From Candidatus Hodarchaeum mangrovi (GTDB lineage: Archaea; Asgardarchaeota; Heimdallarchaeia; Hodarchaeales; Hodarchaeaceae), in NCBI GenBank assembly GCA_016839515.1, contig JAEOUE010000126.1, positions 1 through 37,014 of the forward strand: 37,014 bases of DNA, written 5' to 3'. The notes beneath the pieces were generated by a model, which ran no database searches, was not told the DNA's origin, and saw nothing but the letters and a program-made list of their open reading frames with translations. Position 1 is the first letter of the stretch, and each line of letters opens with the position of its first letter. Positions 791 through 23,419 of this stretch are shown in pieces. A program made the position numbers and the translations under genes.

Positions 791-2269
791 TTATATTAGA
801 TTGAAAATGAAAGCAAGGGCAGATAAATAAATCCCACTGAACAAGAGAAGTAATAGTGAGATAGGAACAAGTCTTTTCATAAAATATTTAAAATTTAATG
901 GTCGCCCTTCTTTTGTTAGAATTGAGAGTGCTAAAATTGAAGCTGCGGAACCAAAAGGGGTAAGACCGCCTCCAAATGCACCAGCGAACACTAGCATGAA
1001 CCAAAGATATAATGGATGACCTGCTGTAGAGGGGAGCGTACTTATCTCTTTGACAATTGGAATTAATGCAGCTGTTACAGGTATATTATCAAGTATTCCA
1101 CTCACAAATGAGGAAATGACTAATATAAGCATTCCAGATGAAAAAAGATCCCCACCACTTATTTCTGATATTATGAGGGCAAGATCTTCCAAAATATGTG
1201 TCGATTCTAGTGTTCCTACGAGGATGAATAGACCAGCAAAGAAAAGGAGAGTATCCCAAGATAGTTCGCGGAGAAGTTTCTTTTCATCAGTCCTTGTTAA
1301 AACAACTGCAAGGACTCCTCCTAGGATTGCTATAACACCAATAGGAATACCGATACTATCAGCTAAAATGAATCCCAGAATCGTAACACATAATGAAAGA
1401 GCAGCCAAATAAAATTTTCCTTTATCTTCGACAACTCCCCATTCATCTAACGATAAAATCATCTCAATGTCAATATTTGAGCTGTTATTGCTATTGAAAG
1501 GTATTTTTTCAGGAGGAAAAACTCTTTTGAGATAATAGATAGTAAATGGGATAGTACTTAGTAGAAAAGGGATTGAAACAATTAAAAAGTCTATAAAACT
1601 CATTCCTGCCGCAGCTCCTACCATTATTGCAGGAAGAGAACTAACAAGAGTAGCCATTCCTGCCAAGCTAGTAGCTAAAACACTTGCTAATAGAAATGGG
1701 GTTGGATCATAATCAAGACCATTACATACTGTTAAAATCATAGAACTGACTAATATCATTGCAGTAACATTAGCCAAAACTGTACTGAGAGCAAAAGTTA
1801 GAATAAAGGTTAACACGAATAGAGGAAATACATTTCCTTTGCTAATTTTTAACATTCGTATTATAATCCAGTCAAAAAGGCCGGTATGCGATGTAGCAGC
1901 TATTAATATCGACATCCCAAAAACAACTGCTAAGACTCCCCATTCCATAAACCCTTGCTCCTCTGTAGTGAGAATAATTTTAGACCAGTTGAAATTCTCG
2001 ATAAGTAATTGTGAAAGAAGTAGAGAGATCGAACTCGCTACAAAGATTATAGTAATTTGAAGATGATGAAATTTAGCAACTAAAATAAAAGTACCTACAA
2101 AAATTAATCCAAAAAGAAACATAATACCTAATTTACTATCTACAGAAAAGACTAAAATAAGAAATACTAAAGCAATAAATATGAATATAATAATTAGGGA
2201 ATTCTTCAAAAAATCATCTTTCTTTTGTAAGTAAATCTCTTTGAATTTCTGTTTATATTCTTTGAACAC
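791..2269 (-). CDS. ArsB/NhaD/SLC13-like (P-protein-like) ion/anion permease
   Basis: Polytopic membrane protein with LANVTAMIL, WDTLLFFAGLFILVG, SGILDNIPVT and GGGLTPFGSAAS motifs typical of the IT-superfamily ArsB/NhaD group. Confidence 0.8.
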   Translation of the reverse strand: MFKEYKQKFKEIYLQKKDDFLKNSLIIIFIFIALVFLILVFSVDSKLGIMFLFGLIFVGTFILVAKFHHLQITIIFVASSISLLLSQLLIENFNWSKIILTTEEQGFMEWGVLAVVFGMSILIAATSHTGLFDWIIIRMLKISKGNVFPLFVLTFILTFALSTVLANVTAMILVSSMILTVCNGLDYDPTPFLLASVLATSLAGMATLVSSLPAIMVGAAAGMSFIDFLIVSIPFLLSTIPFTIYYLKRVFPPEKIPFNSNNSSNIDIEMILSLDEWGVVEDKGKFYLAALSLCVTILGFILADSIGIPIGVIAILGGVLAVVLTRTDEKKLLRELSWDTLLFFAGLFILVGTLESTHILEDLALIISEISGGDLFSSGMLILVISSFVSGILDNIPVTAALIPIVKEISTLPSTAGHPLYLWFMLVFAGAFGGGLTPFGSAASILALSILTKEGRPLNFKYFMKRLVPISLLLLLFSGIYLSALAFIFNLI

Positions 2270-14528: not shown

Positions 14529-14825
14529 ATGAGTCTAAAATCATGTATTTTATTAATTTCTTGTTTGAATGAATCATTTTGTCTTAAATATAAGATCTGG
14601 TTAAATGAGTGTCCCTCTGCCTGCCCTTATTTTCAGTTTGGTGAAAGTGGATTATGTAATGATTTTAAAGAAGAAAACTTCAATATTAAATGCATATATT
14701 TAACACGCTTTGGACTAGGAAACGATTATCCAAAATTTTATTGTAATTTATTGCAAATAGAGTCCCCTATCTGTAAAAAGTGTGTGTTAAGAGAGTACAT
14801 AGAAAGTGATGAACTAAATACATAA
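14529..14825 (+). CDS. Small Cys-rich protein with an internal duplication
   Basis: Two units: C-ILL...FC-x9-C-x3-C and C-IYL...YC-x9-C-x2-C. Confidence 0.6.
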   Translation: MSLKSCILLISCLNESFCLKYKIWLNECPSACPYFQFGESGLCNDFKEENFNIKCIYLTRFGLGNDYPKFYCNLLQIESPICKKCVLREYIESDELNT

Positions 14826-18447: not shown

Positions 18448-18798
18448 ATGTCATTAATCCAAGAAAATAAACGAATGGTCCGTGAACGAAAAACAATAGA
18501 CATTATGATCCAGATTTATTGTAATGATAAACACAATACAAAGGATAATTTGTGTGAAGAATGTATTGAATTAAAGATTTATGCCAACATTCGTTTAGAT
18601 AAATGTCCATATGGAGTAAATAAAACAACATGCAATAAATGTCCAGTCCATTGCTATAAACCTGAAATGAGGGAAAGAATCCGAGAGGTAATGCGACATT
18701 CTGGGCCGAAGATGAGTTATAAGCATCCTATTCTAGCTTTTTATCATCTTGTTAATGGACTTAGAAAACCAAAACTTAGGGAAAAAGAGCAAAAATAA
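18448..18798 (+). CDS. YgbA / nitrous-oxide-stimulated-promoter family Cys-rich protein
   Basis: RERKTIDIMIQIYC...LCEEC...YANIRLDKCP...CNKCPVHCYKPEMRERIREVMRHSGPKM...HP. Confidence 0.9.
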   Translation: MSLIQENKRMVRERKTIDIMIQIYCNDKHNTKDNLCEECIELKIYANIRLDKCPYGVNKTTCNKCPVHCYKPEMRERIREVMRHSGPKMSYKHPILAFYHLVNGLRKPKLREKEQK

Positions 18799-18984
18799 GC
18801 TGATCCATATCCTACGATTGGTAAAAATGGATGTTTTATTAAATTAAACCCAATTAGTGAATTGGTCTTTAAATTTGACTTTATTGCAATTTCTATAGCT
18901 ATATCAAAAAATTAAGTGTATAATTGAAAGGTAAAAAATCTGATAAAAAAAAATTTACATTCTTAAGGATATTTAAGAAAAAGG

Positions 18985-19115
18985 TTCTCCTTCCCAAAGG
19001 GTGAAAGAAGTGGAGTTGGACAGAATGAGTCGTAAGGGGAAGCTTTATAGCCATATTTCCTAGTGGGTTATATACGACTAATTAAGACCGACTAGTTAAC
19101 CCACCATTCTGTCTT
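18985..19115. ncRNA. Unassigned structured RNA: pseudoknot enclosed by a terminal stem, plus an adjacent hairpin
   Basis: GACAGAATG 19019-27 / CATTCTGTC 19105-13; AGTCGTA 19028-34 / TACGACT 19073-79; GTGGGTTA 19063-70 / TAACCCAC 19097-104. The last two helices cross. Locally GC-enriched, no ORF. Confidence 0.6.
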
Positions 19116-19509
19116 ATGATCAAATTAGGCATTGATTAAGTTATAAATCTACAGCTGAGTTATCAAAACAATAATTCATTAATTTAGTTTTTAATACATG
19201 ATTTAACAGCCTTTTTTTCACTAACCAGACCTTAAGTCATGTGACTAATTTTATATGCATTTAATGTTATAGTATTGCATATAAAGGAGAGAATAGCCAA
19301 TTTGTTACTATTCATAAAGATTAGAAGGTTTTCCATAAAAATTTTTAGATAATCCATCTTAATTAAAATTGTTAAATTTTTTAAAAAATAAAATATCTCC
19401 GACAAAATTCTAGAGAATTATTTTCCATCTGAAAGAAGAAAAATTTATATAGCTCGTTCAATTAGGAGTGATTAATTTGAAGCTTATGACGTTTAAGTGA
19501 GATATATGT

Positions 19510-19686
19510 ATGAAAAACCCACCTACTTCTTCTCATAATGCTAATTGTCAAGATATACAGGAAAAACAGCTTGAAAACATCACAGAAAAGATAGTAGTAT
19601 GTCAAACTGAGCAGGGGCCTGAAACGTTTCGAAAATATTCTCTTAAAAATGCGATTGAAGAATTAGATGAGCTTTTTGATAGTTAA
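19510..19686 (+). CDS. Small hypothetical protein (58 aa, below the ORF-track cutoff)
   Basis: MKNPPTSSHNANCQDIQEKQLENITEKIVVCQTEQGPETFRKYSLKNAIEELDELFDS; GTGAG upstream. Confidence 0.5.
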   Translation: MKNPPTSSHNANCQDIQEKQLENITEKIVVCQTEQGPETFRKYSLKNAIEELDELFDS

Positions 19687-19698
19687 ATAATATTCTAA

Positions 19699-20595
19699 CT
19701 AATTTAACATTTTTTTGATTTTTTCTACATAATTCTGGCTGTACTTATCATAACCCACTAAATCTATTTTCTCTAAGCTCTTAATACCTAAAGATAATTC
19801 AATAGCTCGAGCGATTTGTTCTTGATCGAGAATAGATCCTTTAGATACCTCGGGAGTTGTTCCTAATTCTCTGAGAATAGCTACTCCAATAGAATCGATG
19901 GCTATTCTATCAGTACTTGCTAACATTACTTGTGCATTCTTAAGCGATCCTTTAGCTGGACCTCCAGTCACAAACGCATCAACTCCATCTAAAATTATTA
20001 GAGAAGGATTATAAATTTGATTGATTTCTGCGATCATTTTCCGGATATGAGGAGATGAATGAAGTTCACTCATATAATTATAACCATCTCGCGGCACTAA
20101 ACCTACAGAAATCTTCAAGGAGAGAGTGAAATGTCCCCCAAATTGATGGGTTTTAAGACATGGAAGAGTAATAATGGCATCCGCTGTTTCTAATAATTTA
20201 GGGTAAAGAAAACCTTTTTTCCAATGCAAATCGTCAGAATTATAAGGAATCCAATGAGTTTGAGGTTGTGAAAGGTCAATAATATCGAAATTCCCTAATT
20301 CTTCTTGTAATGTATACAATCCTTTAATTACCATTGTTTGATGGGTATTTGCCGGACCTGATCTTTCCATTACTATCACTTTTTTTGCTCCCACCGATAT
20401 TAGATGAGAAATTAATTCTCTAATAATAGTTATATCGGTTGATGCTGGAGGTGGATCAGCTGTATTAAAATTGGGTTTTATAATTATAGTTTTATTCTGA
20501 AAAGTACGAAAAGTATCTGTATAATATTGAAAAATTTTTTTCATACCATCAATGCGACTTTTTGTTTTAACAACCAGTACTTTAACCATGATCAA
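19699..20595 (-). CDS. DUF362 family protein
   Basis: IIIKPNFNTAD, VMERSG, LPCLKTHQFGGHFTLSLK, ILDG, DRIAID. Confidence 0.9.
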   Translation of the reverse strand: MIMVKVLVVKTKSRIDGMKKIFQYYTDTFRTFQNKTIIIKPNFNTADPPPASTDITIIRELISHLISVGAKKVIVMERSGPANTHQTMVIKGLYTLQEELGNFDIIDLSQPQTHWIPYNSDDLHWKKGFLYPKLLETADAIITLPCLKTHQFGGHFTLSLKISVGLVPRDGYNYMSELHSSPHIRKMIAEINQIYNPSLIILDGVDAFVTGGPAKGSLKNAQVMLASTDRIAIDSIGVAILRELGTTPEVSKGSILDQEQIARAIELSLGIKSLEKIDLVGYDKYSQNYVEKIKKMLN

Positions 20596-22319: not shown

Positions 22320-22739
22320 AAAATTGAGGCAAGTCAAACAAGGATAGCATGGATCTTAAGATGTTGCATAAAAAACAATTCGAAATTTAATTGATAAATG
22401 TTAATAAATGTTATGATTGATTCATTAACGTTTAAGGAATTTCTAGTCGTCGTTGATAATACTCGATGGTTAGCAGAAGGAACAAAACAGAATTCATAGA
22501 TTATAAACACAACTGTGAATGGAATAGTAAAAAAGTTTAATAATTCAGTAGATACGATCCAAGAAACATTCAAGAATTTTGTTACTGAGTCAGAAGAATT
22601 TTTTGCCTCTTCTGAGGAAGTTATAGCTAGTATCGTGGAACAAAATACTAGTATGGCGAAATTAACTTCCTCATCTCAGGACTTAATTTACCTTGGGAGT
22701 AGATCATCCAAACAAATCTTGAAATCTTGGATCTTTTAG
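22320..22739 (+). pseudogene. Decayed methyl-accepting chemotaxis protein signalling domain
   Basis: EFLVVVDNTRWLAEGTKQNS* (TAG 22497-99) resembles GFAVVAD.VR.LAE.T. SEEFFASSEEVIASIVEQNTSMAKLTSSSQDL resembles the methylation helix. A frameshifted IEASQT/G*HG lies upstream. Confidence 0.65.
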
Positions 22740-23419
22740 CGATGTGATTGTAGAAATTTATTAGTAAGTCGAATAAAACAGTTCTCCAGTCCTTGGGAAG
22801 AAGAAGGATCTTCAAAATCAATCTCACAATAATCCATATTATGTAGATATGCATAATGATATCCTTCCTTTGACGAAACACTGCTCTTTTCCAAAACTTT
22901 TGTCTCTGGCTTATGGTTTTTTTTCTTTTTTAATCTGAAATTTGATCTTTTTCGTAAAATAAAATGAAGAATAGGACTCAATTTCCCCTTCTGTGGGCGA
23001 ACTGTGTTTTTATCAGATAATTTGGTTACTTTCTGGGTTTTTTGAGGATAATTTTTTATTCCCAACAGCAGGATAGGAATATCTTTGGAGGGTACATGTT
23101 TCCGAAATTCCATTATCCAATTCGGAATTGCTGCAATGCTTTGTTTATCTTCTATTAAAAAAAAGATCATGCAAGCAGAAGCTCCTCGATAGTAACTTGG
23201 ACGTAACTTTCCGAAAAATTCCTGGCCAGCAGTATCTACAAGAATCAATTTAATATTATTATTTTCAATTGTAATTTTCTTTGTAGTTATATCTACTCCT
23301 AAAGTTGGAAGATAATTCTTGTCAAATTTATTCTCAGCATATCTTCTAATTAAAGAAGTCTTTGGTGAAGAGGGTGATCCAATAGCACAAATTTTGAAAA
23401 GATATTCATTTGAAACCAA
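22736..23419 (-). CDS. Rab-like small GTPase with degenerate G1/G4/G5 motifs and a polybasic insert
   Basis: YLFKIC, YLPTLGVD (G2), VDTAGQE (G3) and SYYRGA are intact. G1 reads GSPSSPKTS and G4 reads GIKNY. GGGGTGA RBS upstream. Confidence 0.9.
   Translation of the reverse strand: MVSNEYLFKICAIGSPSSPKTSLIRRYAENKFDKNYLPTLGVDITTKKITIENNNIKLILVDTAGQEFFGKLRPSYYRGASACMIFFLIEDKQSIAAIPNWIMEFRKHVPSKDIPILLLGIKNYPQKTQKVTKLSDKNTVRPQKGKLSPILHFILRKRSNFRLKKKKNHKPETKVLEKSSVSSKEGYHYAYLHNMDYCEIDFEDPSSSQGLENCFIRLTNKFLQSHR

Follow-up and report, generated by a model that had tools for sequence, protein, structure and literature searches.

A putative family of small pseudoknotted RNA genes in one genus of Asgard archaea

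RNAs that combine a pseudoknot with a multi-helix junction usually have dedicated tasks, among them catalysis, the sensing of ligands and the assembly of ribonucleoproteins. To our knowledge, only few structured RNAs of this type are known from archaea. The aptamer of the THF-I riboswitch, located in the 5' UTR of folate genes in Firmicutes, has a closing stem with a further stem stacked on top, a three-way junction and a pseudoknot in which one arm's loop pairs with the 3' strand linking both stacked stems. The P1-P4 core of RNase P/MRP holds a long-range pseudoknot inside a terminal stem. HDV-like ribozymes form a nested double pseudoknot with the strand order P1-P2-P3-P3'-P1'-P4-P4'-P2'. 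Small RNAs of the C/D box class are marked, beside a terminal stem, by a C box (RUGAUGA) close to the 5' end and a D box (CUGA) close to the 3' end, and those of the H/ACA class by an ACA (ANA) box directly 3' of the basal stem. Type III toxin-antitoxin loci such as toxIN combine a promoter, a tandem array of pseudoknotted RNA units, a terminator and a gene for an endoribonuclease of about 170 aa.

The window analyzed here is a stretch of 37,014 nt from Candidatus Hodarchaeum mangrovi. A sequence-only reading had proposed an undescribed structured RNA in it, built from three perfect helices, A (9 bp), B (7 bp) and C (8 bp), with B and C crossing each other and each directly adjoining A. Direct inspection of the sequence confirmed that all three helices in the window are fully Watson-Crick paired at the claimed positions (Table 1), and the coordinates bear out both the crossing and the abutment. 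Also seen in the sequence, as described, were the repeated CGACTA (19075-19080 and 19089-19094), a flanking hairpin (18987-18993/19007-19015) and, on the minus strand, a TTTATAA box (19147-19141) and a T5 run. Among 5000 shuffles of the 95 nt that preserved dinucleotides, one contained three disjoint perfect stems of at least 7 bp. Sliding a 95-nt frame across the 37 kb gave three such stems in two of 1846 positions; one is the RNA locus and the other (2441) is a trivial all-A/T stretch with 15% GC. Four DNA sequencing runs over the stretch gave an identical sequence apart from one SNP at 18983.

Two descriptions of the locus held only in part. The local GC enrichment is present but modest (0.36-0.40 as opposed to 0.22-0.29 in the flanks). 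The locus is not strictly ORF-free, as a 51-aa ORF on the minus strand (18899-19054) overlaps it, although this ORF is not conserved in the RNA family described below. The minimum free energy (MFE) of 138 nt of the window was unremarkable, with z-scores of -0.86 for the plus strand and -2.25 for the minus strand, and the nine family members ranged from -0.5 to -3.3 in sense and from -1.1 to -2.8 in antisense orientation. Thermodynamics alone would thus have missed both the element and its strand.

In the window's own 4.0-Mb genome, the element is single-copy. BLAST of 191 nt against 40 relatives detected one true homolog (G011:C5), and weak matches such as L015, lying within ordinary coding region, were dismissed as chance. 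With a sequence-only model built from the window copy and this homolog, we obtained eight strong members scoring 39-108 bits, spread over six genomes among the 22 of the window's genus. When these eight were used to build a structure model and the genus was searched with lax filters, the result was the same eight and one weak match of 21.6 bits (G005:C189), which may be a decayed copy and was left out of membership. Outside the genus, the structure model found nothing in 61 genomes of the class and nothing in the 143 genomes of a phylum sample, so that one of 52 genera was positive. A pattern scan listed 15 genome and 17 metagenome loci, seven of which were confirmed by the model, six of them already known. 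Its metagenome part added L061, a close ortholog of the window copy (88 bits), and its part over species-representative genomes returned the same Asgard MAGs together with bacterial chance matches. Three further loci with weak model matches (L023, L024 and L027) were left out of membership. Viral contigs and phage records contained no match. The homolog search in Asgard genomes therefore gave eight members in genomes of the genus and one metagenome ortholog, and none in any other Asgard genome searched. GC contents of the members range from 0.39 to 0.48.

We regard these nine copies as probably representing a new RNA family, known so far from one Asgard genus only. The RNA is missing from 16 of the 22 genus genomes and, as described below, from the loci orthologous to a neighboring Cys-rich gene in six genomes, indicating that it is dispensable. 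In the parts of the literature accessible to us, we found no description of such an RNA from Hodarchaeales or Heimdall-type Asgard archaea. One preprint reports ncRNAs annotated with Rfam and RNA sequenced from two cultured Hodarchaeales strains.

The fold was counted on the sense alignment of the nine sequences (A5), and helix positions are given as alignment columns. All nine members conserve helices A and B, as well as the duplicated CGACU and the inner hairpin's core; helix C is not a family feature. In the fold that we propose, a terminal stem A of 8-10 bp with near-invariant sequence would lead into a three-way junction of helices E, D and H, and a pseudoknot B of 6-7 bp would form between D's apical loop and the segment of the 3' strand linking E to A (Table 1). 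Overall, 93.4% of 287 cells are paired, compared with 38-46% after the 3' partners have been shifted by 1-3 columns. Changes on both sides of a pair were counted in 15 cells against a shuffle mean of 6.4, and none of 500 shuffles reached 15. These cells are spread over seven pairs (shuffle mean 4.9), a spread reached by 51 of 500 shuffles; independent events are few because there are only nine sequences, several of them orthologous.

Table 1. Features of the putative RNA gene, with positions in the window, columns of the nine-sequence alignment and the share of cells paired
Feature	Position	Strand	Alignment columns	Cells paired	Remark and basis
TATA-like promoter box (TTTATAA)	19141..19148	-			Ends 26 nt ahead of the first base of helix A
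Predicted transcription start zone	19114..19120	-			1-7 nt ahead of helix A; inferred from TATA spacing
Helix A			10-17/98-105	91.7%	
Helix A, 5' strand, GACAGAAUG	19105..19113	-			First 7 nt invariant in 8/9 members; RNAalifold
Helix A, 3' strand, CAUUCUGUC	19019..19027	-			Sequence and alignment
Helix C, 5' strand, GUGGGUUA	19097..19104	-			Middle bases 19100-19102 form helix E with 19037-19039 in the consensus
Helix E (tentative)			20-24/84-89	84.1%	
Helix D			28-37/55-64	95.1%	
Helix D, 5' strand, CUAGUCGGUC	19086..19095	-			Contains the first AGUCG copy (19089-19093); RNAalifold
Helix D, 3' strand (19060-19069)	19060..19070	-			Overlaps the 3' strand of helix C (19063-19070) in the window lineage
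Pseudoknot B			44-49/91-96	98.1%	
Pseudoknot B, 5' strand, AGUCGUA	19073..19079	-			In the apical loop of D; second AGUCG copy
Pseudoknot B, 3' strand, UACGACU	19028..19034	-			Flanked by E and A; linkers of 1 nt in the consensus of the family
Hairpin H, GGCU-AUAA-AGCU	19041..19052	-	72-75/80-83	97.2%	Core of the inner hairpin; RNAalifold
3' hairpin (19015-18987) then T5 run (18982-18978)	18978..19015	-			Likely 3' end/terminator; sequence, kept in the ortholog

RNAalifold, which is blind to pseudoknots, returned A, D and H on its own and did not return E. Several pairs vary between members in ways that preserve pairing: pair 17-98 of helix A occurs as A-U, U-A and U.G, pair 35-57 of helix D as G-C, A-U and G.U, and three of the four pairs of hairpin H show changes on both sides. 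In helix E, pair 23-85 changes from A-U to G-C in the window lineage. Pair 49-91 of pseudoknot B is C-G in seven members and U-A in the two of the window lineage, and a seventh B pair (50-90) is present in five of the nine members as A-U, U-A or G.U. From this alignment, we are confident that helices A, D and H are real, we lean modestly toward accepting pseudoknot B, and we treat helix E as tentative. An alternative pairing, B-alt (30-34/92-96), uses the first AGUCG copy in D with the same 3' strand; it is 97.8% paired but shorter and without a double change, and the alignment does not firmly separate B from B-alt. The junction bases AAU ahead of H are conserved as well.

The 3' strand of the consensus runs through E, 1 nt, B, 1 nt and A, and 2 nt connect A to E on the 5' strand. 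These linkers suggest that A, B and E could be stacked as a single long rod with the geometry of a coaxially stacked H-type pseudoknot. As in that motif, E and B cross with a 1-nt linker in the 3' strand, and here the long loops carry D and H; the 2-nt linker on the 5' side would cross the groove of the 6-bp B. The arrangement differs from an H-type pseudoknot in that the extra terminal stem A encloses it and its loops contain two more helices.

The remaining helix of the A-B-C model did not hold at the level of the family. Helix C is paired in 69% of cells across nine members (65% in eight) and is perfect only in the window; the close ortholog forms seven Watson-Crick pairs and one G.U. The seven remaining members use the shared 3' strand in helix D (95% paired) rather than in C. 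We compared folding energies without the values of G021b, which are unreliable owing to a shifted helix A in its aligned sequence; A+E+D+H beat A+C+H by 7-14 kcal/mol in six of the other seven members. For the window and its ortholog, on the other hand, A+C+H was favored over A+E+D+H by 1.5-1.9 kcal/mol. Six substitutions in the window lineage create an alternative 8-bp helix C competing with D and E. The A-B-C fold might be functional in this lineage, or the RNA might be bistable between C and D+E. All six lineage-specific substitutions extend C, and most other members have a weak C of 4-5 bp with two G.U pairs. The same substitutions, however, keep D (8 of 10 positions) and E (the A-U to G-C change) paired, so they do not discriminate between C and D+E; moreover, being confined to one lineage, they count as one event. 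Together with the 69% pairing of C across the family and its energy deficit in six of the other members, this makes a functional C, alone or as one of two folds, rather unlikely, and we retain A-E-D-H with B as the family fold.

The strand of the RNA is indicated by the nature of the tolerated mismatches. Read in the minus-strand sense, the paired cells of the nine members include 27 G.U pairs and 3 A.C combinations, and pairing consequently amounts to 93.4% in sense and 85.0% in antisense orientation. Compared with the window, the close ortholog carries three changes that pair only as G.U in the minus-strand sense, and one swap from U-A to C-G in hairpin H. No ORF is common to the members. 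A small coding ORF on the plus strand (peptide ...RLASPHFCL...) was rejected because of single-base indels in G021b and the lack of a shared start.

The sequence-only reading had also proposed a stand-alone gene, tentatively placed on the minus strand, with TTTATAA as its promoter and the T-run behind it, and this proposal is backed by the G.U bias and by a positionally conserved box. An A/T octamer ends 24-26 nt upstream of GACAGAA, the start of helix A, in eight of nine members; it reads TTTAAATA in four of them and TTTATAAC in the window. In the ninth member (G011a), the only candidate boxes end about 23 or about 33 nt upstream. The distance between box and helix A fits the usual archaeal spacing from TATA box to transcription start, which places the predicted start just ahead of helix A. 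Among paralogs at non-syntenic loci, homology is limited to about -31 to +109 relative to the RNA, i.e., to promoter plus RNA, and the homology block between paralogs ends flush with helix A. The 3' hairpin has a form specific to the window lineage. Runs of 4-6 T are found 0-40 nt past helix A in six of the nine members (W, WOR8, G011a, G011b, G007 and G021b). We consider it very likely that the locus is a real RNA gene on the minus strand. Positions 19120-18978 would then constitute a stand-alone small RNA gene with its own archaeal TATA promoter and oligo-T terminator, producing an RNA with a core of about 105 nt, or about 140 nt including the 3' hairpin.

Searches against known families supported the claim of a structured ncRNA without a counterpart in Rfam, both for the window and for six other member loci. 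Rfam 15, with its families for RNase P, HDV-like, hammerhead and twister ribozymes, riboswitches, SRP and 5S RNA, gave no match at the gathering score over the whole window, a sole match of 9.9 bits, by chance and outside the element, at E<=10 in 18850-19300, and none at E<=1 in the six other member loci (18.6 kb in all). The cloverleaf search by ARAGORN found no tRNA or tmRNA gene in the window. We also rejected several classes by their defining motifs. For a C/D box sRNA, none of the nine members contains CUGA, and no conserved C box is found at the 5' end even when one mismatch is allowed. For an H/ACA sRNA, the ACA common to eight of nine members lies only within the GACAGAA of helix A, and the tails past A vary. 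Likenesses to the U6 ACAGAGA box, to Y RNA and to K-turns were discarded, as the bases concerned are either paired or not conserved.

The topological resemblance to RNase P/MRP noted earlier is genuine, but nothing beyond topology supports it: the RNA here is about three times smaller and matches no Rfam model. Its presence in only six of 22 genomes in a single genus also excludes a universal enzyme RNA. The THF-I riboswitch resembles the inferred fold in its overall plan and in size (about 90-105 nt). Sequence and covariance-model similarity is absent (no Rfam match at E<=10), and the RNA here is an archaeal stand-alone gene with putative promoter and terminator of its own, located in the window between convergent genes. 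The likeness implies no ligand.

A new class of catalytic RNA, self-cleaving or other, could be suspected from the compact pseudoknotted fold, the invariant helix A, the conserved AAU of the junction and the homology block ending flush with helix A. The comparison with known ribozymes speaks against it. There is no Rfam ribozyme match (E<=10 for the window locus, E<=1 for the six members), and the hammerhead core motif occurs in none of the nine members. The strand order in sense, A-E-D-B-D'-H-E'-B'-A' according to the fold inferred from the nine-sequence alignment, does not fit the HDV order, and neither strand has a P3 hairpin between the crossing strands directly preceding P1'. We judge a catalytic RNA to be very improbable here.

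The genomic neighborhoods of the copies fall into different arrangements. The window copy sits in the 900-nt spacer that separates the convergent genes for YgbA_NO (18448-18798, plus strand) and DUF362 (19699-20595, minus strand). In G017, G009 and G011:C5, an ECH hydratase gene is followed by the RNA and then by a gene on the same strand for a Cys-rich protein of about 105 aa. In G011:C44, G007:C8 and G021:C113, the RNA precedes an ORF for a basic peptide of 43-45 aa, with a GGUGAG box about 28 nt past the T-run; a Cys-rich paralog follows further on in G011:C44, where it is broken, and in G007, where it lies on the other strand. In G021:C191, the RNA is at the contig end. Neighbors with Pfam matches are ordinary (ECH, DUF362, Ras, ABC ATPase, MBL and YgbA_NO). 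Pfam returned nothing for the Cys-rich protein, a 58-aa ORF and the 43-45-aa ORF, apart from one sub-threshold z-alpha match.

The Cys-rich family has eight invariant cysteines and no Pfam match, and its relatives are annotated only as 'hypothetical', all in Heimdall/Hodarchaeota records. An AlphaFold2 model of the protein had a mean pLDDT of 44 and was unusable. The genes occur in up to eight copies per genome, with at least one in 20 of the 22 genomes. Five of seven assessable loci, in two separate genomic contexts, have a Cys-rich paralog 200-420 nt downstream of the RNA; the nearest copy in the window (14529-14825) is 4.2 kb away. With filters off, we found no hidden RNA copies in ten loci orthologous to the Cys-rich gene and none in three loci orthologous to YgbA_NO. 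Six genomes have the ortholog of the Cys-rich gene without the RNA beside it. The syntenic spacer of G014 is 176 nt shorter and lacks the RNA, and the Cys-rich gene there keeps a conserved upstream region of its own. Because of this separate upstream region, the opposite strand in G007 and the distance in the window, the link between RNA and Cys-rich gene is one of proximity only.

The arrangement with a small ORF directly behind the RNA raises the question of a cis-acting leader or attenuator, similar to a riboswitch, which would control read-through at the T-run into the downstream small-protein genes. In G011:C44 and G007:C8, the Shine-Dalgarno-like GGUGAG box belongs to a 45-aa ORF that starts so close to the T-run that a second promoter has no room, and G021:C113 has the same ORF family at that position. 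The two AGUCG copies, as well as C and D+E, provide mutually exclusive pairings, and the architecture is like that of aptamers with a three-way junction plus pseudoknot. At the other loci, the evidence points the other way. The RNA in the window has no same-strand gene downstream and converges on YgbA_NO, and in G017, G009 and G011:C5 a distance of 200-420 nt, with hairpin and T-run, separates it from the next gene. Moreover, the Cys-rich gene keeps its own upstream region in G014, which has no RNA, and other copies of the small ORF (found in 21 of 22 genomes) are without such an RNA. Thus, we consider a leader unlikely as the general explanation, but a cis-leader role is possible for the three loci with an RBS-bearing ORF directly after the RNA.

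The same three loci share with type III toxin-antitoxin systems the order of promoter, pseudoknotted RNA, terminator and small ORF with RBS. However, the RNA here is a single unit instead of a tandem array (one model match per locus), and the ORF codes for a 43-45-aa basic peptide and not for an endoribonuclease; it is also absent from most loci. With downstream ORFs of 43-45 aa or the Cys-rich protein of about 105 aa, we rejected a type III antitoxin RNA.

The patchy occurrence, with one or two copies in each of six of 22 genomes and in differing contexts, would also be expected of a mobile-element relic or a non-autonomous piece, such as a MITE or an orphan transposon guide RNA, or of a site acting at the DNA level. 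Helix A could serve as a terminal inverted repeat, and presence and absence alternate at one orthologous locus. Yet a MITE would be dispersed in many copies, whereas we counted one copy in the window's genome and at most two per genome elsewhere. No transposase, RT, Cas or nuclease gene, including TnpB/IscB, is near any copy, and the viral and phage sequences contain nothing similar. Guide RNAs of transposons (TnpB/IscB omega RNA, IS110 bridge RNA) were specifically rejected, since no such ORF was found within about 1.3 kb of eight copies. The copies are 70-83% identical and hence old rather than recent insertions, and the compensatory and G.U-biased changes speak for selection on an RNA fold. 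A mobile element or DNA site is thus extremely improbable.

We therefore favor, as the probable explanation, a family of minus-strand RNA genes driven by a TATA box and folding as A-E-D-H plus B. In three of the contexts, a hairpin and/or T-run closes the locus and no gene in the same orientation lies nearby, so the RNA presumably acts as a free molecule. A fold this compact and a helix A of invariant sequence suggest that it probably works via a specific protein or RNA partner. It could be a trans-acting RNA that binds a protein or regulates, linked in evolution to the small Cys-rich gene downstream in most loci; this protein-binding or regulatory role is a tentative and somewhat doubtful proposal. 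The neighboring small Cys-rich or basic proteins are obvious candidate partners. The narrow, patchy spread and the nearness to a lineage-specific Cys-rich family argue for an accessory RNA-protein module and not for core machinery, which limits the reach of the finding. The RNA family put forward here would be new but of a kind already familiar, and its spread is narrow.

A bolder reading is that of a bistable sensor or regulator of a new class, locked by the pseudoknot and switching between A+E+D+H+B and A+C. The strand shared by the 3' sides of D and C and the duplicated AGUCG would allow two folds, in which the invariant strand of helix A could be exposed or hidden. We consider this quite improbable; if true, no RNA switch triggered by a ligand or protein would have been described earlier from the archaeal lineage closest to eukaryotes. 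The other bold reading would be a small ribozyme of a new class. For the favored family of RNA genes, the small size of about 105 nt, the clear promoter and the natural variants hinting at two competing folds make a well-defined test object.

Observations made post hoc concern helix A and the Cys-rich genes of G017 and G009. The invariant strand of helix A is complementary to AUGACAGAAA in the start region of these genes. Their ORFs start with AUGACAGAAAAUUGG, which repeats the 5' strand of helix A and is complementary to its 3' strand.

The putative structured RNA is often followed closely by the gene for a Cys-rich protein. These proteins, of about 100 aa, share 8 invariant cysteines and the motif CLxLKxW..CPxxCP; a search against Pfam returned no match for the family, and its relatives are annotated only as 'hypothetical', all in Heimdall/Hodarchaeota records. 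The Cys-rich family is lineage-specific. Of the 22 genomes of the genus, 20 carry the gene, and a single genome may have as many as 8 copies.

In the RNA-bearing loci of genomes G017 (L069, ~1495-1515) and G009 (L070), the Cys-rich ORF starts with AUGACAGAAAAUUGG. This start repeats GACAGAAA, which is invariant in the 5' strand of the terminal stem of the RNA, helix A, and is thus complementary to the 3' strand of the RNA. The ORF start is GAUAGAAA in the locus on contig C5 of genome G011, where N-masked sequence (L009, ~1050-1200) obscures the spacer between the RNA and the gene. The match to helix A was noticed post hoc and may have arisen by chance.

Features neighboring the RNA (L, extracted loci with their own coordinates; G:C, genome and contig)
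Feature	Location	Strand	Counterparts	Pfam
Cys-rich protein gene	window 14529-14825	+	L019:1807-2118; L021:1001-1270; L009:705-1025	
58-aa ORF	window 19510-19686	+	L026:2000-2176 (-)	no match
Ras/Roc-type small GTPase gene	window 22736-23419	-		Ras
Ras/Roc-type small GTPase gene	L026:2589-3074 (G021:C113)	-		Ras
43-45-aa basic ORF	L025 ~1635-1772	+	L026:1337-1465 (-); G007:C8:2073-2156	

Two short ORFs also accompany the RNA. The basic one, with the motif LERKYGREPKI and a C-terminal WH, starts about 28 nt past the T-run behind the RNA and is preceded by GGUGAG in two loci; its relatives, located away from the RNA, occur in 21 of the 22 genomes. The 58-aa ORF, which ends in ...ELDELFD(S/T), occurs in the window and in G021:C113, each time some 400 nt away from the RNA but with opposite orientations relative to it. 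The Ras/Roc-type GTPase genes of these two loci are found 1-3.6 kb upstream of the RNA, and a GTPase-like gene of 177-191 aa, whose sole Pfam match is a weak one to AimR, precedes it in G011:C5, G009 and G017. The proximity of GTPase genes may simply reflect their commonness in Asgard genomes.

Only one other 95-nt stretch in the window contains three perfect 7-bp stems (2441-2535). Because all its stems consist of A/T and it lies in a spacer of 15% GC between two ORFs, we rejected it as low-complexity sequence. The covariance model of the RNA family also matched G005:C189:7413-7491 (L068:1501-1579) weakly, at 21.6 bits. This stretch, possibly a decayed copy of the RNA, lacks helix A and most of D and retains UGGAUAAACUAGU and UUUCC...CACUC.
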